From: an uncultured Gammaproteobacteria bacterium
GTDB lineage: Bacteria > Patescibacteriota > Patescibacteriia > Patescibacteriales > Patescibacteriaceae
Direction of reading: 5' to 3'
Length of the DNA: 64,000 nt
Assembly (NCBI GenBank): GCA_964593745.1
Contig: CAZQHN010000002.1
Span: forward strand, 66,283 to 130,282
The notes below the pieces were generated by a model. It ran no database searches and was not told where the DNA came from. It saw nothing but the letters and a program-made list of their open reading frames with translations. Shown here piece after piece: positions 32,740-43,019 of the stretch. Each line of letters opens with the position of its first letter. Position 1 is the first letter of the stretch. The position numbers were made by a program, and so were the translations under genes.

Positions 32740-32822
32740 TGTCATACCCCGACTTGTTCGGGGTATCCAGCCCATGAATCATTAACCACGGGCTGGATTC
32801 CCTGCCTACGCAGGGAATGACA
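32740..32822. repeat. TGTCAT...ATGACA two-arm palindromic element
   Basis: GTCATACCCCGACTTGTTCGGGGTATCCAGCCC...GGGCTGGATTCCCTGCCTACGCAGGGAATGAC. Confidence 0.8.
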
Positions 32823-32909
32823 CAAAAATGATAATGTTTTGATTTTTGTTTTTAAGAGTCATGTAGTCCATGCCTAAAATAGTTATTAAGCTATTATTAC
32901 TATAACATA

Positions 32910-33073
32910 TTTATCTTTAAATATCCGTTGACAAAATTTTAGCGAGCTGATCAAAGAACTCATATTCTAGAGGAGAGAGATTTTGCTCCCTTTCCTTGGT
33001 ATACAAGTCAGGGAGCTTAGAATAAAGCTCTCTGGCCTGATCGATTATTTTGTCAACGGGTATTTAAGGATAA
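32910..33073 (+). ncRNA. Candidate structured RNA or MITE
   Basis: 27-bp closing stem and two inner hairpins; mismatches are G-U on the plus strand. Confidence 0.5.
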
Positions 33074-33125
33074 GTAAATTTAGTAGATAGGGAGGTTTTT
33101 AATAGGTTAACCTCCCGAAAACCTT

Positions 33126-33728
33126 TTAGAAAATTTCACTGACGCAACGCTCATCCCAGGTAAAGCCACCCAAGATTTTTTCGCCGTCCCATTTATAATA
33201 ATGGGATGACGGCGAACCATAGAGGCGGCCGCTATAAGACGTGCGAAAAATAACGTCTTTGGGTATTATAGCAACCAATTGGTCGCCACTACCCATTCTT
33301 CCAGCCGTGCCTTGGGCAATTGTTCCGGAGGCAATAATTTCTCCGGGGAAATCTGAAAATATTATATCTCCATTTTCATTTTTTCCAGAGCGATCGCCGG
33401 TATGAGAGTTGCCGCCGCGGAAACCAATTTTTGTTAAAAAAACAACAACAATTTTTTCAGTTTCATCAGTTGTCTCTTTAGCAATTAGTTTTGATTTGCC
33501 AGCTTTGGTTGTGGTAAGATCGGCAAAATTAATTTTTACTATGCCTTTTCCCTGCCACTCTTTATACTGACCATTGCTCAGCTGTACAGGTAGTACTCCG
33601 CGTTGCCGGCCGCGACCGTCTTCCCCGATAATAATTGCCGGAATTTCAATGCCGGCATTTTTAAGAGAAAGTTTTTCAACGCTTGCGCCGTCTGAAACTG
33701 TACCGTTTTCAATTGTGAATATTTTCAT
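33126..33728 (-). CDS. Hypothetical Gly-rich protein
   Basis: 200 aa; AAAGGAGG upstream; followed by hairpin 33090-33116. Confidence 0.8.
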   Translation of the reverse strand: MKIFTIENGTVSDGASVEKLSLKNAGIEIPAIIIGEDGRGRQRGVLPVQLSNGQYKEWQGKGIVKINFADLTTTKAGKSKLIAKETTDETEKIVVVFLTKIGFRGGNSHTGDRSGKNENGDIIFSDFPGEIIASGTIAQGTAGRMGSGDQLVAIIPKDVIFRTSYSGRLYGSPSSHYYKWDGEKILGGFTWDERCVSEIF

Positions 33729-33833
33729 TTTTTTCAGGCCTCCTTTGCCTGTTTTATTTTTTATTTTGAAATAATGCTTTCCGAGACTATTGCTAGCTTA
33801 ATAATCTCTTTAGCATTACTTCAAAATAGGAGT

Positions 33834-33922
33834 TTCTGCTTTCGTCCTATGCCTCGCTAAAGCCACGTAGAACGTGGCGGAGGCGGGACTCATCAGTCCG
33901 GTTGCATAACCAGAGAGCAGAA
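33834..33922 (-). ncRNA. Hammerhead ribozyme (type III)
   Basis: TTCTGC-TC^-TCTGGTT(ATGC)AACCGGA-CTGATGA-GTCC...GGAC-GAAA-GCAGAA; complete catalytic core and three stems. Confidence 0.9.
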
Positions 33923-34333
33923 GGAGAAAGAAAAACCAATTCTTTCTCCGATAACCCTACTCAACCAATCCAGACTATGAATTGGTTTTTGCATGCGGCA
34001 GTGTTTTTATTCTCTGCCTAAGAATTTTTGCCGGTATTTTTATATAAGAATCATGCTGCCTTATAAAAAATTTGGATTTTGTTTTGGCAGATCCTAACCG
34101 GTCGAATAATCTGCCTAGCTATAAGGTTGCAACCCTCTTCGGACTCGGTCCAAAGAAACCGCCCCTACCTTATCACTAAATCCGCGTAGTAATAGGGGAT
34201 GGCTCATGGTTTTTGTTTTGGCTTACAGTTGTTATCCGCGGAGATAACAAGATAAGCCTTGATCGTTTTACCGGTTTCTCCTTTCTTTAGTTTTTTTAAT
34301 TGTAATTTTATTGGCCCGGTAAACCATATAAAA

Positions 34334-35710
34334 TTAGAGCTTTTCAATACCCACCCCACCAGTGGCTTTAGCAAGCTCAGCTAAAGCATGGTTAGAGCAC
34401 TCAACTACAAAGGCATGCAGTTTAGTACCTGCAAAATCCTTGGTGGTTAAATTGATAGTATCATCGCCGTCAGTTATAACGACGAGTTCCGGGCGGTAGG
34501 TTGACCCGGCTGACACTATTTCTTCGATTCTTTTCTGCGCTTCTCTAGCACACGCAGAAATATCTGTTGATCCGCCCGAGTAATTTTTCTCGGTAAAATT
34601 ACGGATCAACTCTTTGGCTTCAGAAGGAGTGGACGCGTGATGCTCCTTCTTAAGCTTTGAATCGAAGAGGCGGACATACAATTCCGCCTCGCCAGCAATT
34701 ACCGCTTTTAAGCGGTTCATGAGGATCCCGCCGGCTTTAAAGATCCTCTTCCCTTCCCCCATCGAGCCGCTGCAGTCAATGATGACATACAGCAGTTGTT
34801 TCCTTTCGATGGTTGTCACTCGTTCCCGGACCGGAATTTTTCCGGAAACGGCCAGATAGTCAAAATAAATCTTTGACTGCTGGCGTATACCCCAATAAGA
34901 TTTTTCAATCCTATTGAGTTCACCCAAGTGACGGATTGGGCGTTTGCGGATTTCGTCCCCAGCAGGATCCGCTTCCTGCTTTTTGCTCTTGCGCACTTGC
35001 ATGCGCGTAAGCTGGTCAAGGTTGCGGGAAATCTGTAACATAATTTCCTTCCCGCCTAACATATCCTCGGCTAGGGACATTTTTTGCAGACCGTCGTCTG
35101 CATCTGATTCTCCTGAACCAGCGTCCTGGTCAGGATTTTTCGGGTCCAGGAGATCTTTTTCATCCTGGGATAAGGAGTCAACCTCATCCATTAGATGATT
35201 TAGATCCTCTCCAATTTTTTCCGAGTTGTCATTCTCGGTAAAAATCGGGAGAGGTTCCTTGCCCTCTCCTCCGCCGCTTCCTCCGCTCTTTTTTGAGAGT
35301 AGCTTAAGCAAGTTCATAGCTTGCTCAAGCGGCGATTGTCCTGGAAATTTATCCAGTTCAATCGTCTGGAGAAAATCGCAGACGTTTTGGTGATAGTTCA
35401 TCGCTACCTCCACGCCGTCTGCTACGGCGGTGCTCCGAGACTTGGTGTACTCGCGACCATTGTCCCGGAGTCTTTTTAGCTTCCATTCTCCGTCTGAATC
35501 CGAGGCTGGAAGCTGGGCCTCGATTTTTTCTTGAATCACCCCGCGATAGCTGGACGGGGGAGCGATATCTCCTCCAGCCGCGAGGTTACACAAGTCGGCC
35601 ACCAAATCCCGACTAAAGGACTTGAGGCCAACTTTATTGGCAGCCTCTCGCATTTCCTCCTGGTTAGGAGGAATATAAATTGCGGGAGCTTTGGTACGGA
35701 AAGTATACAT
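34334..35710 (-). CDS. vWA-domain protein (partner of MoxR/RavA-like ATPase)
   Basis: MIDAS IIDCSGSM, GGSTDI, VVITDGDD; GAAAGGAGG upstream. Confidence 0.9.
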   Translation of the reverse strand: MYTFRTKAPAIYIPPNQEEMREAANKVGLKSFSRDLVADLCNLAAGGDIAPPSSYRGVIQEKIEAQLPASDSDGEWKLKRLRDNGREYTKSRSTAVADGVEVAMNYHQNVCDFLQTIELDKFPGQSPLEQAMNLLKLLSKKSGGSGGGEGKEPLPIFTENDNSEKIGEDLNHLMDEVDSLSQDEKDLLDPKNPDQDAGSGESDADDGLQKMSLAEDMLGGKEIMLQISRNLDQLTRMQVRKSKKQEADPAGDEIRKRPIRHLGELNRIEKSYWGIRQQSKIYFDYLAVSGKIPVRERVTTIERKQLLYVIIDCSGSMGEGKRIFKAGGILMNRLKAVIAGEAELYVRLFDSKLKKEHHASTPSEAKELIRNFTEKNYSGGSTDISACAREAQKRIEEIVSAGSTYRPELVVITDGDDTINLTTKDFAGTKLHAFVVECSNHALAELAKATGGVGIEKL

Positions 35711-35746
35711 ACTTTCCTCCTTTCTCTCCCGCGGCCAATGCGGGAA

Positions 35747-36871
35747 TTATATTTTAATTAATTCTAAAGCCTTGGCCTGGGCTTCGGAACTTTTTTGACT
35801 AATTGTGTCTCGGATTTTTTTACGACGCTCAGAGAGAGCGTCGGTAGCCTTTAGCGATGAAGCTTCATCACTTAACGCCACTAATTTTTTTGCCACTTGC
35901 ATTGCCTTAATTGGAGAAGTGGCACTCTCCAACTCATTGAGAATATTCTGAAACTTATTCTCAACGATGGAAAGATTATTCTCCGCCGCAGCTCTTTCCA
36001 TGGCTGCTTGAAGGTCCTTTTCAATTGTTTCTGCAAGACCTTCCAAACCTGGTAAGAACTTTAGATCTACCAGGTCGCCCTGATCAACATGATCAGAGCC
36101 GCGGAGCGCCGCTGAAGACTGGCACACCTGGTATGCGTGGACTGCTGTTCTCGGCGACACGAAGTTGCCTTCCGCTGTAGCTTTGGCCAAGACTTCGGCC
36201 AAAACTGCCTTGAATCCGTTAAGAATCGGACCCCAAAGGCGAGGGGCGACTTTTTCAAAAAGTTGTAGATAACTTTTTGAAGAGTAGTCTTTCCACTGCA
36301 GGTTTAACTGCAGTGGAAACCGCTCAATCAAAGCATGGGCGGCAGGCCCGAGCTCTGAAATTTCGGACGGCTGCTTGTTAGTCAAGCAGATGATTATCTC
36401 CGTCCTCATTGCGAAACGCTGAGCGCCGTTTCGCAATTCCCGCGATGTTAGCACATCTTTCAGTGCCAACAAGACGCTCGCAGGAGCGTCAAAAAGTTCC
36501 TCAAACACTGCTACCCGTGAATTGAGGAAACTTTTTTCGGGGTAGTACTCAAGGATTTTTTGATCCTCGAGTTTTTTAAAGTTCAGGCCCCCGAAAAGCC
36601 TGGACTCATCCATACCCTCGCCAAAAAATTGGCAGAAGGTTTCGGCTTCTAAGCCGAGGCCCTGGATGGTGGTCTGAATCATTTCAGACTTGGCATGGCC
36701 GCCAGGTCCGAAAATGATTATATTTTTCCCGGCGTTGAAGCCTAACTCCAACAACCGAGAAACCTCGTCAACAAAAATAAATTTGTCTTCGAGAATCTTT
36801 TTTATATTTTTATTCAATTTTTTTGCCCGTATAACGCCACGGTGCCGGGCTTTTGAGTTTGAGCGCTTCAC
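35747..36871 (-). CDS. MoxR/RavA-like AAA+ ATPase (start may be TTG 36817)
   Basis: Walker A GPGGHAKS, Walker B VAVFEELFDA, sensor CLTN, ALIERF, VSPRT. Confidence 0.88.
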   Translation of the reverse strand: MKRSNSKARHRGVIRAKKLNKNIKKILEDKFIFVDEVSRLLELGFNAGKNIIIFGPGGHAKSEMIQTTIQGLGLEAETFCQFFGEGMDESRLFGGLNFKKLEDQKILEYYPEKSFLNSRVAVFEELFDAPASVLLALKDVLTSRELRNGAQRFAMRTEIIICLTNKQPSEISELGPAAHALIERFPLQLNLQWKDYSSKSYLQLFEKVAPRLWGPILNGFKAVLAEVLAKATAEGNFVSPRTAVHAYQVCQSSAALRGSDHVDQGDLVDLKFLPGLEGLAETIEKDLQAAMERAAAENNLSIVENKFQNILNELESATSPIKAMQVAKKLVALSDEASSLKATDALSERRKKIRDTISQKSSEAQAKALELIKI

Positions 36872-37004
36872 CCATTCTTCATTAAGGGAATAGATGAACC
36901 TAGCACTCCTCGCCGTCTTATTGGTGGCGAATAACCCAGGATTCAGTCGTTCCTATCAACGACTGTCCTGAAAAAATTTTCAGAAGTCGGATAGGCGACT
37001 TATT

Positions 37005-37478
37005 TTACCAGGGACATACCGAAGTTTCAGTCCCTGGAATTATTTCTTCCTTTCCCCACACTAAAGCATGTGAGGTCCAGAACTTGCGACTCTTCGGCGT
37101 CGCGTTTTTATCCCAGAGCTCTGGCTCTGGTTTACCGCCGATAAAAGCGGTAACCAGAACATATGTCCCGGGTTGTTCGTCCGCCGTCTTTAGAATAACG
37201 ACAACGGTTGAACAAGGTTCGGCTTGACGGTTCTTTACAAACCGGCTCAGCCCGAACCTTTTGGGCCTTTGAGCAAAAACAATTTGATCGCCTAGCCCTG
37301 TGGCGACGCAGATTGTTTCCCCGATGATTCGGTCAAGATCGACCTCCTCAACGAGGAACTTTCTCCCCTTGCTTTCAATTTTTCCTAATGCCTCGGGGAG
37401 AATGTCGAGGACACTAGAATGAAGATGGCTGTTGTAGCGATCTACAACAGCCTCTCCACTTTTTATTTTATAATTCAT
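37005..37478 (-). CDS. Hypothetical protein
   Basis: 157 aa; AGGAGG upstream; RPKRFGLSRFV, YVLVTAFIG, FWTSHALVW. Confidence 0.8.
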   Translation of the reverse strand: MNYKIKSGEAVVDRYNSHLHSSVLDILPEALGKIESKGRKFLVEEVDLDRIIGETICVATGLGDQIVFAQRPKRFGLSRFVKNRQAEPCSTVVVILKTADEQPGTYVLVTAFIGGKPEPELWDKNATPKSRKFWTSHALVWGKEEIIPGTETSVCPW

Positions 37479-37742
37479 TTTTCTTGCCCCTCCTGTGGCA
37501 AGAATTTTTTTTAGTTTTTAAAATAATGCCCCGAAAGTTTATAAGCATGGGGCTGATAAACTTCCGTTCGCATTATTTTAAACTTTATAACAGGAGAATA
37601 TTATATTATGTATTTTACTTTACATATTTTTATAATTATTTTTTTATCATTAACAAACCAGCGGTTGCTGACGTTGCTGTTTTGGCACCAACGTAAAATC
37701 ACCGTCTAATTTATTAAGTTTATTCTATTGTAAATGTTCAGT

Positions 37743-37909
37743 TTTACTGTTCCGTAGTTCGCCGAAGGCGAACGCAGGACAGCTCTCTCCTCTTTTATTT
37801 ACCATTCCTGACTTACGTCAGGCAGGCCGTAGCCACGTAGAACGTGGCGTAGGTGGGTTTTACCATTCCGTAGCCACGTAGAACGTGGCGTAGGATGGCT
37901 CTCTCCTCT
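37743..37909 (-). repeat. Cluster of three hairpin repeats, one with a nested 20-bp insertion
   Basis: CCATCCTACGCCACGTTCTACGTGGCTACGGAATGGTAAA and two variants. Confidence 0.8.
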
Positions 37910-38216
37910 ATTATGAAAACCTCAATGGTCTTCTGTAGAGTTTTAATAAAGAGGTTTATGAAGGCAAGACGGGTTAAATCTTGTCTTCAACCGATCTCTT
38001 TACTAAGAACGGTTGGCAGGAATGTCGTTGGGGGAGTTTACTCGTCCTTTTTGGACAATTCACTACGCCCTACTGGTACATCGTCCGTAATATTGACCGG
38101 TCGTCTTTTCCGATCCTTATTACAGGCTTGTCTAGTAACTCTCTCCTCGAGATTTATCAGACTCAAATCCTGCGCGACGATTTGACAAATTTAAAGAACT
38201 ATTTTATTACACTGGC

Positions 38217-38245
38217 ATTATAACAGAATATTATAAAAGTGTCAA
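38217..38245 (-). promoter_or_regulatory. Consensus sigma70 promoter of the island operon
   Basis: TTGACA-17 bp-TATAAT with extended -10 TG; boxA-like AGTTCTTTAAAT just downstream. Confidence 0.85.
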
Positions 38246-38341
38246 TAATAATGCTAACAAAATTGACCACTGATTAACAATGACATTGACAGTATTGATT
38301 AATACGCTGATAATTATTGATTAATTTTGTCATTATTTAGG

Positions 38342-38369
38342 TTGACAAATTGTATAGCTATGCTATAAT
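38342..38369 (+). promoter_or_regulatory. Sigma70 promoter of the TrmB-like gene
   Basis: TTGACA-16 bp-TATAAT with extended -10 TG. Confidence 0.75.
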
Positions 38370-38414
38370 TAAAGCAGTGGATCCTAGCTTTCGCTAGGAT
38401 GACAATTGATAAAT

Positions 38415-39164
38415 ATGTATAAAGATATTCTAAATGAGCTTGGTTTAACTAAAACCCAAGCTGAAATAATGGCCTTTTTATTGGAAAACGGATCGGCTAA
38501 GGCTAGTTTTATAGCCCAAAAAACCACTGTTCCCAGAGGTGTGGCTTATAAAGGTCTTGATGAATTGGTTAATTTAGGCCTGGTTGAGAAAAAACAAGCC
38601 GGTAAAATTACGGTTTTTCAGGCCGAGCACCCTATTAAGTTAGAGAAAATCATTGAAAATAAGGAAAAAGAAGCTAATCAAGCTAGGCAAAGACTGACTG
38701 GTTTATTGCCGGAATTGGTTTCTATGTATAACTTAGCCAATCATCGCCCAGGCGTTTATTTTTATGAAGGTAATGAGGGGATTGAGCAGGTTTTAAATGA
38801 TAGTTTAGAAAGCAAAACCGAGATTTATACTTATGCTGATCTTGAGGCCGTGACAGCTGAATTAAAAGAGATTAATGCGCGCTATGCCAAAGAGCGGGAT
38901 AAACGGGGCATAAAAAAGAAAATTATTGTGGCTGACACTGAGTTTAATCATAATTTTTTTATGGATTATGATAAAACCATTACGGAAATAAGATATTTAA
39001 AAAAAGAATTTTATCAGTTTAAAACCGGTATGCAAATTTATGATGGAAAAATTTCTTACCAGGTTATGGACGGCAATAACAAGTTAGGCATTATTATTCA
39101 TGATCAGCATATTTACGAAATGCATAAGTTGTTATTTGAATTTATTTGGAAAAAATTAGAATAG
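38415..39164 (+). CDS. TrmB-family transcriptional regulator
   Basis: LNELGLTKTQAEI...VPRGVAYKGLDELVNLGLV wHTH; PGVYFYEGNEGI. Confidence 0.88.
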   Translation: MYKDILNELGLTKTQAEIMAFLLENGSAKASFIAQKTTVPRGVAYKGLDELVNLGLVEKKQAGKITVFQAEHPIKLEKIIENKEKEANQARQRLTGLLPELVSMYNLANHRPGVYFYEGNEGIEQVLNDSLESKTEIYTYADLEAVTAELKEINARYAKERDKRGIKKKIIVADTEFNHNFFMDYDKTITEIRYLKKEFYQFKTGMQIYDGKISYQVMDGNNKLGIIIHDQHIYEMHKLLFEFIWKKLE

Positions 39165-39291
39165 CTTATTAAAAAACCACCCGCTAAAGCGAGTGGTTTT
39201 GTTTAATGACGTAGTCCGTGAAGCGTTGTTCCCAAGTAATTCTAAACTAAATAATATTTAGCGTAGTAATACGCTTAATACTAATTATTTA

Positions 39292-39474
39292 TTCCACCTT
39301 TTTAGAAAAGGTGGAGCCAAAAGCGCGAGCTCGTAAAAAATTTAATAAATTTATCGCTCGTTCAAGGCGCCTCGCCCAACTCCTCCTCCTCGCTTACGCT
39401 CGGACTCGTCAGACAAGGGCTCGGCTTATGCCTTTCACTTGCTCAAATTTTAATTAAATTTTTTAAGGCTCGCC
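39292..39474. repeat. MITE-like long palindromic element
   Basis: TCCACCTTTTTAGAAAAGGTGGA hairpin then GCGAGC..TAAAAAATTTAAT / ATTAAATTTTTTA..GCTCGC arms around a GC-rich core. Confidence 0.6.
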
Positions 39475-39547
39475 ATAAAGAAATTTAATTTAAATCCCAA
39501 ACCATGTAATGGGCAAAAAAGAAACCGTCAGTTTATTGCTGGTAGTT

Positions 39548-41605
39548 TTAATTTTGTGCTTGATTTTTTTCAAATACCAAATAGCGTATATCATCGGCGC
39601 TTGATTTATCTTGCCAGTAGCGGGTCATAGTATATTTAGTCTCAGTTTTTTCCAGTTGATTAAGATTATCGTCGCATTTAGGTAATAGGGTAGTTAAAAC
39701 TTTTTGGTAACTAGAAAAGTCTTTGGTTAGGTTACATTTTACAACAATAACAGGACGATTTAGGGCTGTTGTTATTTTATTTGGCTCAATTGCAATTCCG
39801 ATTAAAGAATTTGGTTCCAGCTCAGCTTGATTAGTTTTTTCTTCCGGGCGGTAATGGTAAGTTTTATTTTTTTCATTGTCTAGTTTAATAGAAAATAGCG
39901 TTTCTCCGGTATTATGATAATCTTCAATCAGTCCATCAGCCACAAAGCCGACTTTTTCCACATAAGCGCAACCGGCCGGTATTTTAACTGAAGCTGAGGC
40001 TTCTAAAACACTATTCTCGCCTTCTTTAATTAAGGCTTTTTCCATCATGCGGTTACCAATATTTAAGCCCCTTAAATCTTGACTAACATTAAATGAACCA
40101 GCATAAGTGGTATCATGATTAGTCGGTTCAAATCTAACAAACCCAATTATTTTATGATTGTATTTTAATAGATACCACTTTTGTCCATCCATGTTTTCTA
40201 GTGATTTTTTCAGATCATCTATTACTACTTTTGCCATTTTAGAGTTACCGAAAGATTCCCAATTTGCTCTGGCTATGTCAATTATTTCTTGTTTTTTATT
40301 ATCTGTTAAATCATTATAATGCGGTTGTTTAATTGAGAGATTTAGCTTTTTAATATCTTCAAGATTAAGGTCAAAACCTTCTAGCTTGGCCGCTCTTAGT
40401 GTTGCTAATAAAATTTCTTCTTCATTAGAAATATTTTTTAAATAATCTATTAAAAAATCTACATCATCTTCATTTTTTTCTGGGTTATTTATTTTTAAAA
40501 TAATTTTATGAATTAATTTTTCAATTCTTTCTAAAAACTGGCTTTTTATTAGCTGAAAATTAATTTGGTCATCATCATTAAAAATATCATTTTTTAAAAA
40601 AGAAAAATTGTATTGATCAGCTAAATCATAGACTGAGTTTATTTTGGAAAAAATATCTAAAGCTTGATTAGGTGATAATTTTTGACTCAATTCAATAATT
40701 GAATTTGCTGTTGTTTCTTTTTTTTGACAGGCAGCAAATGTTTTTAAACCCTGTGCACCATATTTTTCAGAAAAAGTTGTGAGTTTTTTCTTGTTGTCGC
40801 TTGACTTTTCGCCATATTCTATAATTCTAGTTTGTTCTAGTGTTTTTAAAGAATCAAATCTAATAGATAGGTTTTTAAAATTTTGATAGTATTCATTATA
40901 TTTTTCTGAGAAATTTGTTACTGAATTTTCTTCTAAAATAGTCTGTTTTTTAAAATAATCTTCAATTTTTATTGGTTGTTTGTTAATTATATGGTTTGTT
41001 TTTAAAATATCTTGATCATAATCAATTTCAATTATTTTTGTAAGCTTATTGTCATTGGTAAATATGCCGATAGAGCCGTCATTGTTAATTTTTTTTGCAA
41101 TACAATTATTATAGTTATCATCTTGTAAAACAATTTCTTTTCCATAAAAATCAAAAAAATTTTTTCCCTCCTCATTTTGGTTGTTTACTGTAGTGTTGCC
41201 GTTTATTATTTTTTTATCTTTAAAAATAATATCAGTCATTAAAAAGTGTCTAAAAAAGAACTCTCTTTTTTTATCAAAATCTTTTTTTAGGTATGGGTTA
41301 TTTTTAGCAATAGTTGAAATATTTAGATAAGCATTAAGAGCATTGCGATGACCTTTGTTTTTTAAGCTGTTAATTTTTAATTCATTACCTATTTCAAAGT
41401 CAACATTTGGTAAAAGGGGCATTTTATCTTCAAAAAAATTTTCTACTGTTTCTTTGACTCTTAATTCTAGAGGTGAATTTTTTATTTTTTCTAATTTATT
41501 AAAATCTAAATTAGGATAAATTTCCTCATTTTCTCTAGGGGTTTCTTTTTCTGTGTCGCCTGTTGTTTTTTCTGAAATTTTTTCAAAATTATTAAATTCT
41601 CTCAT
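39548..41605 (-). CDS. Large protein with C-terminal GNAT acetyltransferase-like domain
   Basis: IIGFVRFE, YAGSFNVSQDLRGLNIG, AYVEKVGF; very AT-rich; ATG 41605 avoids overlap with der. Confidence 0.75.
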   Translation of the reverse strand: MREFNNFEKISEKTTGDTEKETPRENEEIYPNLDFNKLEKIKNSPLELRVKETVENFFEDKMPLLPNVDFEIGNELKINSLKNKGHRNALNAYLNISTIAKNNPYLKKDFDKKREFFFRHFLMTDIIFKDKKIINGNTTVNNQNEEGKNFFDFYGKEIVLQDDNYNNCIAKKINNDGSIGIFTNDNKLTKIIEIDYDQDILKTNHIINKQPIKIEDYFKKQTILEENSVTNFSEKYNEYYQNFKNLSIRFDSLKTLEQTRIIEYGEKSSDNKKKLTTFSEKYGAQGLKTFAACQKKETTANSIIELSQKLSPNQALDIFSKINSVYDLADQYNFSFLKNDIFNDDDQINFQLIKSQFLERIEKLIHKIILKINNPEKNEDDVDFLIDYLKNISNEEEILLATLRAAKLEGFDLNLEDIKKLNLSIKQPHYNDLTDNKKQEIIDIARANWESFGNSKMAKVVIDDLKKSLENMDGQKWYLLKYNHKIIGFVRFEPTNHDTTYAGSFNVSQDLRGLNIGNRMMEKALIKEGENSVLEASASVKIPAGCAYVEKVGFVADGLIEDYHNTGETLFSIKLDNEKNKTYHYRPEEKTNQAELEPNSLIGIAIEPNKITTALNRPVIVVKCNLTKDFSSYQKVLTTLLPKCDDNLNQLEKTETKYTMTRYWQDKSSADDIRYLVFEKNQAQN

Positions 41606-41627
41606 ATGACTGTGTTTAAAACAATAA

Positions 41628-43019
41628 TTATGAGTTATGTAGCCCATGCACGTCTCGTCCCTTTTTTACCCACATGGAAATCGGCGTTCCCAAAAAGCCA
41701 TATTTAGCCCTTAATTGATTTTCTAAAAATCTTAGATAAGTCTCAGCTAAGCTTTCGCGCGGTCCGATCTGTACCATAAATTGCGGTGGGTTTACACCGG
41801 TTTGTTTAAATTCATAAATTCTAGGGTATTTTGTGCCCTTACCTTTAGTGGGGCGATGTTTTAAAATAGCAGTTTTTAATAAACGGTTTAAACTAGCGTC
41901 AGGGATTTCCAAATATCTTTGCCTATTAACTTCAATAATTAGATCTAGTAATTGATTAATGCGCACTCGATTTTTAGCTGATAAAAATTGAATTGGTGCA
42001 TGAGTAGCAAAGGGTAATCTGCCTTGAATATAATTAGTATATTTTTTGGGATCACGCTCAAGAGCTAGGTCCCATTTGTTGGCGACTAAAATTAGACTTT
42101 TATGGCGGTCAAAGATTTCTTCAACTAATCTAGCATCTTGTTTAGTTAAGGGTTCAGCAATATCCATAACTAAAATAGTAAGATGTGATTTGTGTACTGA
42201 CGCCAAACTTTTGTCCATGCTAAATTTTTCTAAATTATCTACCTTATGGCCATGCTTAGTAATACCAGCGGTATCAACAAATTCTAAATCATGATTTTTA
42301 TAATTAAAGAATGCGGCCTGTGGTTCTCTAGTAGTATGCGGCACCGGACTAACTATGACGCGAGGATAGCCTAAAATAGCGTTGATTAAACTTGATTTAC
42401 CAACATTTGGTTTACCAATAATTGCCACTTTTATAATTTGTTGATCACTCTTAGCTTTTTTATCCGCCGTAGCTTCAGCGTAGGCGGGAATTTTTTTTAA
42501 AACTATTTCTAATAAATCACCTGTACCAGCGCCAGTTAAAGCAGAAATTGATATAACTTCACCCCAGCCTAAGCGATGAAATTCTCCGGCCGCTGGAGTT
42601 AGATTAAGCTTTTCTACTTTATTGGCGACCAAAATTACTTTTTTCTTATCGGCGATTATTCTTTTAAGAATTAAGGCCATGGTTATATCCTGTGGCAAAA
42701 GTCCATCGCGCGCATCAACTAAAAATAAAATTAAATCAGCCTTTTTTAAATAATCACGCGCTTGTTTTTGCACAAGCTCATCAATGGTTTCCGCTTTAAT
42801 TTTTTTTAATCTTAAAAAATCAAGATTCATAAAACCTCCAGTATCAACTAAATCAAAAATTCTACCTTGCCATTTAACGCTAGCTAGGTTTGAATCGCGC
42901 GTGGTACCAGGAAAATTTGAAACTAAGGCTTGATGCTTTTCAGTTAAGCAATTAAAAAGCGTGGACTTACCAACATTGGTACGACCGAAGATTACGACTA
43001 GAGGTTTACTGAGGGTCAT
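41628..43019 (-). CDS. der: Ribosome biogenesis GTPase Der
   Basis: Two G domains (GRTNVGKS/DTGG/NKVE; GKPNVGKS/DTAG/NKWD) plus KH-like C-terminus. Confidence 0.97.
   Translation of the reverse strand: MTLSKPLVVIFGRTNVGKSTLFNCLTEKHQALVSNFPGTTRDSNLASVKWQGRIFDLVDTGGFMNLDFLRLKKIKAETIDELVQKQARDYLKKADLILFLVDARDGLLPQDITMALILKRIIADKKKVILVANKVEKLNLTPAAGEFHRLGWGEVISISALTGAGTGDLLEIVLKKIPAYAEATADKKAKSDQQIIKVAIIGKPNVGKSSLINAILGYPRVIVSPVPHTTREPQAAFFNYKNHDLEFVDTAGITKHGHKVDNLEKFSMDKSLASVHKSHLTILVMDIAEPLTKQDARLVEEIFDRHKSLILVANKWDLALERDPKKYTNYIQGRLPFATHAPIQFLSAKNRVRINQLLDLIIEVNRQRYLEIPDASLNRLLKTAILKHRPTKGKGTKYPRIYEFKQTGVNPPQFMVQIGPRESLAETYLRFLENQLRAKYGFLGTPISMWVKKGRDVHGLHNS

Follow-up and report, generated by a model that had tools for sequence, protein, structure and literature searches.

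We analysed a 64,000-nucleotide (nt) stretch of contig CAZQHN010000002.1 (hereafter, the window) from a patescibacterial genome of 1.04 Mb (36% GC, 98% complete), and within it a minus-strand operon rich in structured RNA. The operon encodes a small predicted RNase (ORF157; ORF, open reading frame), a MoxR-type AAA+ ATPase, a partner protein with a von Willebrand factor A (vWA) domain, and ORF200, and its promoter diverges from the gene of a TrmB-family regulator (Table 1). Comparison with homologous loci indicates that a conserved RNA scaffold, made up of a leader RNA, short repeats, boxA-like sites, hammerhead ribozymes and a rod-shaped 3′ hairpin, surrounds interchangeable cargo, which in this genome is ORF157, the MoxR-vWA pair and ORF200. 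What was seen directly is the set of parts with its strand bias and covariation, the complementarity of leader and rod, and the exchange of cargo. We give an even chance to the hypothesis that the scaffold is a self-processing transcript with antisense feedback, in which a TrmB-gated, Nus-assisted transcript is cut by the hammerheads and the rod pairs with the leader repeats.

Setting of the operon and samples compared

The operon is located between pth and der. These genes are about 150 bp apart in two genomes of the same genus (G536 and G543), and in G542 and G537 the gap of about 1.8 kb between them is free of the operon; the locus is therefore an accessory island. The GC content is 42-48% in the block from 33000 to 38000, compared with about 26-36% in the kilobases to each side. 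The ATPase was found in 3 of 401 genomes of the phylum, the source genome counted. Despite this rarity, its identity across distant groups of the Candidate Phyla Radiation (CPR) is 50-88%, and the named homologs are mostly Patescibacteria/CPR records.

The spacers of the operon measure about 732, 187, 36 and 605 nt (1566 nt in total). Relative to shuffled sequences, folding gave z-scores of −10.2 for the leader, −4.1 for the spacer before the ATPase gene and −9.5 for the 605-nt block. The first-pass annotation of the window had described a leader of ~730 nt, a block of ~600 nt and about 1.5 kb of hairpin-dense non-coding sequence, in agreement with these values. Its statement that the core genes of the genome are separated by tens of bases does not hold throughout the window, as a rough ORF call gave a median of 132 nt for the other gaps in the window and seven more gaps longer than 400 nt.

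For comparison, 222 loci encoding the ATPase were fetched and 110 non-redundant loci were kept, excluding the locus of the window itself, 30 loci that are mostly planctomycete and 55 distant loci of viral origin. Hammerheads and repeats were counted in 84 CPR-type loci, the window included, after 11 of 95 that were distant or viral had been dropped, and gene context in 33 loci of at least 45% identity. The vWA gene was present in 33/33 of these full-context loci, ORF157 in 29 and TrmB in 28, and ORF157, ATPase and vWA occurred together in 29; ORF200 was present in 0/33. Only ORF157, TrmB and a GNAT-domain gene are conserved as neighbours across the ATPase loci, the remaining neighbours being small and variable. 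At the gathering score, Rfam recognised only tRNAs in the window and 19 homologous loci. Three metatranscriptomes from the same study yielded only chance pieces of 18-32 nt, which are evidence neither for nor against expression.

Covarying motifs at the start of the ATPase gene

Motif A was found in 66 of the 110 loci, always in the sense orientation and within about 70 nt of the ATPase start. Motif B, likewise sense and next to the start, occupies this place in 20 other loci; the two never occur together, and one or the other precedes the ATPase gene in 77 of 86 close homologs. Among the loci examined, both occur only before this ATPase gene. To assess covariation of motif A, 65 of its 67 copies were aligned with MAFFT without fitting, a duplicate and a partial copy being set aside. 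The proportion of paired cells was 80%, compared with 64% in shuffled alignments and 39-46% in a slide control; double changes numbered 444 against 196 in shuffles, and the covariation score was 0.37 against 0.155, the shuffles ignoring relatedness and the slide control agreeing with them. In motif B (19 of the 20 copies aligned), which also covaries, the Shine-Dalgarno (SD) region is paired and invariant in 19/19 for four of the five pairs. Motif A is likely to be a cis-regulator of ATPase and vWA translation.

The spacer that contains motif A had been described as a kissing-loop region of ~170 nt. The spacer (187 nt) is indeed structured and covarying, but its covarying tertiary element is an H-type pseudoknot, the helices of which are 97% and 94% paired; one pseudoknot pair is intact in 65/65 copies with 30 double changes. 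By eye, a kissing contact is not consistent across homologs, in several of which the two loops are non-complementary. The ATPase gene was correctly recognised, although most likely it begins at TTG 36817 and not at GTG 36871, because the resulting product of 356 amino acids matches the 355-360 amino acids of its homologs. This TTG lacks an obvious SD sequence (36817-36850), which L009, L089 and L091 retain after the same small hairpin, and ATPase translation may be weak in the source genome.

The motif A pattern gave 0 matches on viruses, and 20 viral matches to the motif L pattern were not confirmed by profiles; the profiles likewise gave no confirmed motif in 59 viral and 32 mostly planctomycete ATPase loci. 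Further RNA clusters without a match in Rfam (C4, C5 and others) occur in homologs and not in the window. The two named clusters follow the vWA gene in 14 and 11 loci, respectively (e.g. L018:6888-7171, L019:10545-10831, L024:7942-8125 and L103:6322-6601), and some motifs of this type look pseudoknotted.

Hammerhead ribozymes on the operon strand

As first noted, the block after the vWA gene contains a hammerhead. It is a complete type III ribozyme, with the core CUGANGA + GAAA, stems of 7, 4 and 7 pairs, and a CUC triplet at the NUH site. The score against Rfam Hammerhead_3 (RF00008), 25.4 bits, is below the gathering score of 48.5 owing to the insertion of a 37-nt hairpin in stem II. No second such fold was found in the 1.04-Mb genome. 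The hammerheads of G545 and G546 have stem II insertions as well. In the minimum free energy fold, the sequence just before the hammerhead (33922-33965) can pair with the 5′ strand of stem III, an inactive alternative that could make cleavage conditional. Farther upstream in the same block, two hairpin loops (about 34170-34250) carry mutually complementary CCGCG/CGCGG words, a possible kissing or dimer contact.

A pattern search with a stem check over the 84 loci identified 17 type III hammerheads on the operon strand, in 14 loci, and 0 on the opposite strand. The flanks (350 kb) yielded 1, and each of 20 shuffles 0-1. The hammerheads are positioned before ORF157, the ATPase gene, the vWA gene, other cargo genes or the 3′ rod; a hairpin precedes nearly every one. 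In several cases the rod is the next element: a hammerhead lies about 150-170 nt before the rod's seed in L019, L024, L103, L118 and G545, and closer in G790, G516 and G587.

Complementarity between the leader repeats and the 3′ rod

The leader contains motif L, a covarying RNA (91% of cells paired, double changes at 17/22 pairs) found in 31 of the 110 loci; its 3-bp extra pairing shows just 2 double-change cells. Motif L occurs in 4 of 151 class genomes, the source genome included. Of the other three, one has the ATPase operon, one carries motif L beside TrmB without that operon, and one has the repeats and no TrmB match. The repeat word AGGAGAGAG has 94 operon-strand copies in non-coding parts of 42/84 loci, 86 of them upstream of the ATPase gene, and in the source genome the repeat pattern matches 12 times, 4 of them inside the locus. 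The boxA-like words resemble AUGAUCUUUGAAA and UGCUCUUUAACA, as given in passages of two papers (PMC13753749; PMC5725501). Their pattern is biased to the operon strand (19 matches vs 2 on the other strand), and a repeat followed by a boxA-like site was seen by eye in L006, L007, L019, L027, L091, L103 and L123. The source genome has NusB.

The complement of the repeat occurs about once per locus, 2.6-5 kb downstream. When complement sites were picked by the word alone, 20/21 were enclosed in a rod by 26 pairs or more, compared with 38/250 random non-coding positions and 20/88 leader sites. The rod of the window has 48 enclosing pairs, a seed unpaired at 0.99 and a z-score of −9.6. The sense strand folds better in 18 of the 21 rods, with the seed more often unpaired on that strand. 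In an alignment of seven rods, picked for similarity, 20 of the 41 consensus pairs show double changes and the 15-nt seed is invariant. The repeat-rod duplex within a locus came to 10.7 bp vs 9.7 bp for permuted partners (p 1e-4; 24 loci, related ones included). In several loci the rod is followed, on the sense strand, by hairpins that resemble terminators. In the window, the hairpin after ORF200 (33090-33116), which had been taken for a terminator, has no U tract and was not called one; the actual 3′ element is the 169-nt rod.

The interpretation of these results that we consider the most likely is as follows. TrmB would repress the strong promoter until a signal is received, after which NusB-type factors loaded at the boxA-like sites would take RNA polymerase through the hairpin-rich leader. 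The hammerheads would then cut before cargo genes or the rod, so that each piece acquires its own end and stability, while motif A (or B) would set translation of the ATPase and vWA proteins. The rod apex would pair with a leader repeat (several of the repeats stand just before a boxA-like site) and cause termination or decay, a negative feedback like that of phage P4 CI RNA. The cargo, a predicted RNase and a remodelling ATPase pair with phage relatives, would most likely serve a response to stress or conflict.

Several observations weigh against antisense feedback of this kind. Apart from the relatedness among the 24 loci, the own-locus duplex advantage was not repeated in 5 new loci, where own duplexes measured 9-12 bp (mean 10.2) and cross duplexes averaged about 10.0 bp. 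The seed site is present in 27/49 loci, the seed is unpaired above 0.7 in just 12 of the 21 rods, a purine-rich stretch inside the rod can mask it in the consensus fold, and an exact repeat is missing from 11 of 34 full leaders. The window rod itself is more stable on the opposite strand (−66.0 vs −59.7). A hammerhead is present in 8 of the 52 loci with 1.5 kb after vWA and is thus optional, and here ORF200 lies between hammerhead and rod, so that the freed piece would be about 1 kb. The rRNA leader of the source genome shows only loosely boxA-like words. Finally, Rho was not found in the 98%-complete genome, so that the termination step lacks its usual factor.

One could envision two other roles for the same complementarity. 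The first is cis pairing of the rod with the leader of the same transcript, as a loop or scaffold for stability, processing or ligation, or as a large discontinuous RNA from which the genes are looped out, with no feedback. The complementarity data fit this equally, there are many further conserved hairpin modules, and most loci have no hammerhead, so the rod often stays attached. We nevertheless consider it unlikely: several leader copies facing one seed suit targeting in trans better than one fixed duplex, and in at least 8 loci a hammerhead immediately ahead of the rod would cut the loop open. A second long-range pairing, between the motif L loop and a GGGUUA-like word before the hammerheads, was also unsupported (own 6.68 vs permuted 6.51, p 0.17). 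The second role is that GAGGAGAGAG is a single-stranded protein-binding word, and that a rod transcript from the opposite strand is a decoy displaying the same word in its loop. In its favour, the window rod is more stable on that strand, where mismatches of the outer arm become G-U pairs, and a weak promoter-like site (9/12, 32852-32880) faces in that direction. In the set of 21, however, stability and seed exposure favour the sense strand, as do the hairpins that follow the rod, and we regard a decoy as improbable.

A more trivial explanation is that this is an ordinary MoxR-vWA operon with spacers filled by unrelated repeats and miniature mobile elements. Some hairpins are indeed local repeats: one 15-nt hairpin is present in three copies, all inside the operon, two in the leader (37833-37888) and one in hammerhead stem II (33863-33877). 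Two structured elements also lie outside the system, namely the convergent element described below and a palindrome like the repetitive extragenic palindromic (REP) class (32760-32820), which is upstream of pth, has two more copies in the genome and is unrelated to the operon. However, motif A, motif L and the rod each occur once in the genome, which rules them out as REP or miniature inverted-repeat elements; they are also fixed in position and strand, and they covary. This explanation is largely refuted, and we assign it a very low probability.

The RNA scaffold persists with other cargo

In G545 and G798, two genomes of the same genus, TrmB is followed by a leader that carries motif L and the repeats, then by unrelated cargo and three hammerheads, and finally by a homolog of ORF200 and the rod. 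The fetched regions contain no match to the ATPase, vWA or ORF157; the G798 island is on the other side of der. Because these two genomes keep the RNA elements without those proteins, it appears from the comparison that the RNA scaffold is constant and the proteins are cargo. G546 has TrmB, ORF200 and three hammerheads and no motif L, exact repeat or rod; repeats and rod were therefore lost together there. The cargo genes of G545 and G546 are preceded by hairpins similar to the one before ORF157 (37515-37582), the exact pattern of which was not found in the ATPase loci.

The four proteins and the RNAs, which the first-pass annotation placed in one minus-strand unit, are not a fixed combination: ORF200 has no match in the 221 other ATPase loci, ORF157 moves, and the scaffold is retained with other cargo. 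In the comparison of homologous ATPase/vWA loci that it proposed, the spacer RNAs proved conserved and covarying, the hammerheads recur, and motif A or B accompanies most close homologs; the co-occurrence does not extend to ORF200.

In a screen independent of the ATPase, a hammerhead-core pattern matched 36 of 401 class genomes (a reversed control also matched some), and 17 of the 30 loci returned folded as hammerheads. Of 19 regions fetched, selected by the hammerhead-likeness of the match, 17 were validated. Eight of the 17 also had TrmB, motif L, rod or ATPase/vWA; nine had none of these, and hammerheads of the CPR therefore occur elsewhere too. Arrays with no match to TrmB, motif L or rod nearby were seen in L350 (G735:C1 25148-26550), L349 (G693:C7) and G767; as many as three hammerheads lie in a stretch of 1.4 kb, or four are dispersed over a genome.

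Promoter, regulator and neighbouring elements

The promoter predicted at first was borne out as a 12/12 match to the sigma-70 consensus with an extended −10 (TG), and the same arrangement was seen by eye in L089, L091, L009, G545 and G546. TrmB has its own divergent 12/12 promoter (38342-38369), the −35 of which is covered by an inverted repeat, a candidate operator; similar inverted repeats are present in L089, L020/L104, G545 and G546. As TrmB is encoded in 31/37 homologous loci that have at least 5 kb upstream, we think it likely that it controls the operon.

A large GNAT-domain gene (39548-41647, minus strand) is convergent with TrmB. ORF clustering showed 27 such pairs beside the operon, the two genes usually abutting, and the pair is found in G545, G546 and G798 as well; the GNAT-domain gene may be part of the control of the island. 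Between them in the window lies a long hairpin element (about 39270-39480), which had been counted with the system. The element exists (z −7.0). It is single-copy in the genome and nearly absent from homologous loci, with one 29-nt match across the fetched loci, and in 25/27 pairs the gap between GNAT and TrmB is 30 nt or less; for these reasons it is probably an unrelated insertion outside the conserved system.

Elsewhere, the rRNA spacer of L225 (G000:C4, about 870-1060) contains three tandem copies of the 5′ part of a tRNA gene, two of them interrupted by a hairpin.

Proteins encoded by the operon

ORF157, the vWA protein, ORF200 and the divergent TrmB were all confirmed as genes. The ATPase has invariant Walker A/B, sensor N147 and R166 residues, and no match to it was found in cultured phages. 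In the vWA protein, the metal ion-dependent adhesion site (MIDAS) residues D312, S314, S316, T382 and D414 are kept in 71/71 sequences; the model has a helical N-terminal half, the vWA domain at the C-terminal end, and no propeller. On one viral contig (L105/L138/L164), an ATPase-vWA pair 63%/56% identical to that of the operon lacks ORF157 and motifs A, B and L, and exchange between CPR and their viruses is possible.

The structural model of ORF157 (pLDDT 94.6) resembles 2PD0 (Z 7.1) and 4FBD (Z 6.8), which we take to be DUF3228 chains, and the RNase A-like CdiA-CT 5E3E (Z 6.7, root-mean-square deviation 2.7, 78 aligned); these are middling values, and the three are tied. RelE, BrnT and HigB follow at Z 4-5. 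An atlas search matched the DUF3228 cluster at 0.91, and Pfam DUF3228 (PF11539) gave no match at E 0.1. Conserved residues are H18 (137/141), H20 (132/141) and T/S110 (135/141). According to a passage of PMC7297114, the RNase A/EndoU-like family uses an N-terminal His pair and T276. T110 would fall at T276 when the equivalence is read from the ends of the aligned ranges and from conservation, with no gap assumed. On this model, we infer that ORF157 may be an RNase.

ORF157 is upstream of the ATPase gene in 57 loci and downstream in 15. Homologs are encoded in 16 of 301 class genomes, often with no ATPase nearby, and in 20 cultured phage records, mostly of jumbo phages, including two viewed in which the gene is near tRNA genes. 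The ATPase of phage GAP32 and its neighbour, beside an ORF157 homolog, proved unrelated to the operon ATPase and vWA. In several loci ORF157 is followed by a 117-amino-acid protein family (L018:3788-4147, L024:4736-5095), fused to it in L003:199-1068, which is a candidate partner or inhibitor. ORF200 gave no match in Pfam, NCBIfam, PHROG or PADLOC, scored below 0.8 in the atlas, and gave no tblastn match in the 221 other ATPase loci. It is present in 4 of 20 genus genomes, the source genome included, each time in such an operon. PADLOC assigned 0 families to the four operon proteins, and TrmB gave helix-turn-helix-level matches only.

The first-pass annotation had suggested that the RNAs act with, or regulate, the four proteins. 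Processing and regulation of a variable operon fits better, and a ribonucleoprotein of the RNAs with ORF157, ATPase and vWA, acting as a defence or RNA-processing machine, seems to us improbable. The RNase-like fold, the grouping of the three genes in the full-context loci, the restriction of motifs A and B to this ATPase gene, and the ORF157 relatives in the tRNA regions of the two phages would all suit such a machine. However, the scaffold persists without the three proteins, the 63%-identical viral pair does without the motifs and ORF157, no defence family was matched by PADLOC, and ORF157 is found away from the ATPase in several genomes.

Table 1. Coordinates of the operon, its RNA elements and its regulator in the window
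Feature	Position	Strand	Description
3′ rod hairpin, 169 nt	32908-33076	−	CUCUCUCCUCUA (32968-32979) near apex, complementary to leader repeats
ORF200	33126-33728	−	Genus-level cargo gene, no known family
Long pre-gene hairpin before ORF200	33762-33828	−	Inverted repeat I9, fold
Type III hammerhead ribozyme	33834-33922	−	Cleavage predicted after C33915; follows a hairpin, like its homologs
Hairpin series after vWA	33930-34333	−	One homolog, L009 (E 3.5e-4), with hairpins matching by eye
vWA partner	34334-35710	−	Intact MIDAS; Pfam VWA_2
MoxR-type AAA+ ATPase, 356 amino acids	35747-36817	−	Pfam bpMoxR E 1e-16, AAA_5
Motif A	36855-36970	−	Adjoins ATPase start; comprises a hairpin, an H-type pseudoknot (36906-36936) and a bulged stem-loop; no Rfam match
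ORF157	37005-37478	−	DUF3228-like, RNase A/EndoU-like (BECR) core; predicted RNase; phrog_23674
Long pre-gene hairpin before ORF157	37515-37582	−	Fold
boxA-like site 2	37721-37739	−	Downstream of repeat copy 3
Leader repeat, copy 3	37783-37792	−	11-bp duplex with rod apex
Leader repeat, copy 2	37899-37908	−	12-bp duplex with rod apex
Motif L, leader RNA	37944-38015	−	Has an internal loop and a terminal loop of UAACC type; support for the 3-bp extra pairing is weak; no Rfam match
Leader repeat GAGGAGAGAG, copy 1	38139-38148	−	10-bp duplex with rod apex
boxA-like site 1	38186-38199	−	Resembles published boxA consensus
Sigma-70 consensus promoter, extended −10 (TG)	38217-38245	−	12/12 consensus; start probably near 38210
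TGTCA..TGACA inverted repeat	38325-38349		Sequence; covers TrmB promoter −35
TrmB-family regulator, divergent	38406-39164	+	Pfam PF01978 E 1e-10

Comparison with known systems

The proposal of an undescribed RNA-rich system survives, because the spacers covary, the hammerheads recur, and nothing corresponding was found in Rfam or among the open-access papers searched. Searches of open-access text listed no description of the system, although subscription journals and supplements, such as large RNA-motif tables, could hold some of the motifs. At least four covarying RNA families of this system are absent from Rfam 15.

The adjacent MoxR ATPase and vWA protein with its MIDAS, and a third linked gene that is perhaps an effector, recall RavA-ViaA, CoxD-CoxE and the ternary conflict systems. 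The pair is nevertheless far below the NCBIfam equivalog cut-offs for RavA-ViaA (23.5 vs 681 bits and 13.6 vs 500 bits). In ternary conflict systems, as described in a passage of Kaur et al. 2020 (PMC7159879), the third component is VMAP, iSTAND or FtsH, or a beta-propeller fused to vWA. None of these is present here, where the third gene is small and DUF3228-like and an RNA scaffold surrounds the pair. ORF157 shares with 2PD0, 4FBD and the Yersinia kristensenii CdiA-CT domain its fold, the N-terminal His pair and a threonine ending the last aligned strand, but its identity to them is 10-13%, and no delivery domain or immunity gene was seen. If the model is correct, its RNase-like core would provide a first functional lead for DUF3228-type proteins, including those of jumbo phages.

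The hammerheads have the full catalytic core, three stems and NUH site of bacterial type III hammerheads (RF00008). What distinguishes them is that up to three occur per operon, before cargo genes or the rod, each after a hairpin. Ribozyme processing of polycistronic RNA in bacteria has been suggested and not defined, and the role of most genomic self-cleaving ribozymes in bacteria is described as open, in passages of PMC6765202. The operons offer a natural, repeated and testable case.

For the proposed feedback, the comparison systems are P4 CI RNA and P1 C4 RNA. As in P4, an RNA from the operon's own transcript is complementary to leader sites; according to a passage of PMC4825925, CI RNA arises by processing of the transcript that it controls, in which it stops transcription by pairing with seqA and seqC. 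Unlike CI RNA, the rod is 105-200 nt long at the far 3′ end, its release would be by a putative hammerhead, and it has one to five target copies; the host is a chromosomal island in which no phage or integrase genes were seen. The C4/CI families of Rfam gave no match at gathering in the window or the 19 homologous loci, nor at E 10 in the region, and the system is not a member of the P4 CI/C4 family. If the feedback exists, it would represent a seed-and-target antisense circuit in minimal genomes thought to be poor in regulation.

Integron cassette arrays and phage morons place variable small cargo genes, with hairpin elements between them, behind one strong promoter. No integrase or attC was found among the families shared by at least 4 loci or among the repeats, in the course of an analysis that included no dedicated integrase search. 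We tentatively suggest, with somewhat less than even confidence, that the locus is an RNA-governed cassette platform: a TrmB-gated promoter would drive a variable array of captured, partly phage-derived genes, ribozymes would divide the transcript into units of one gene each, and a rod set free by a ribozyme would feed back on the leader repeats, with motifs A, B and L as new classes of regulatory RNA, possibly riboswitches or ribozymes. The operon shares with integrons and morons a strong promoter and variable small cargo split by hairpin elements; unlike them, it is punctuated by ribozymes and RNA folds.

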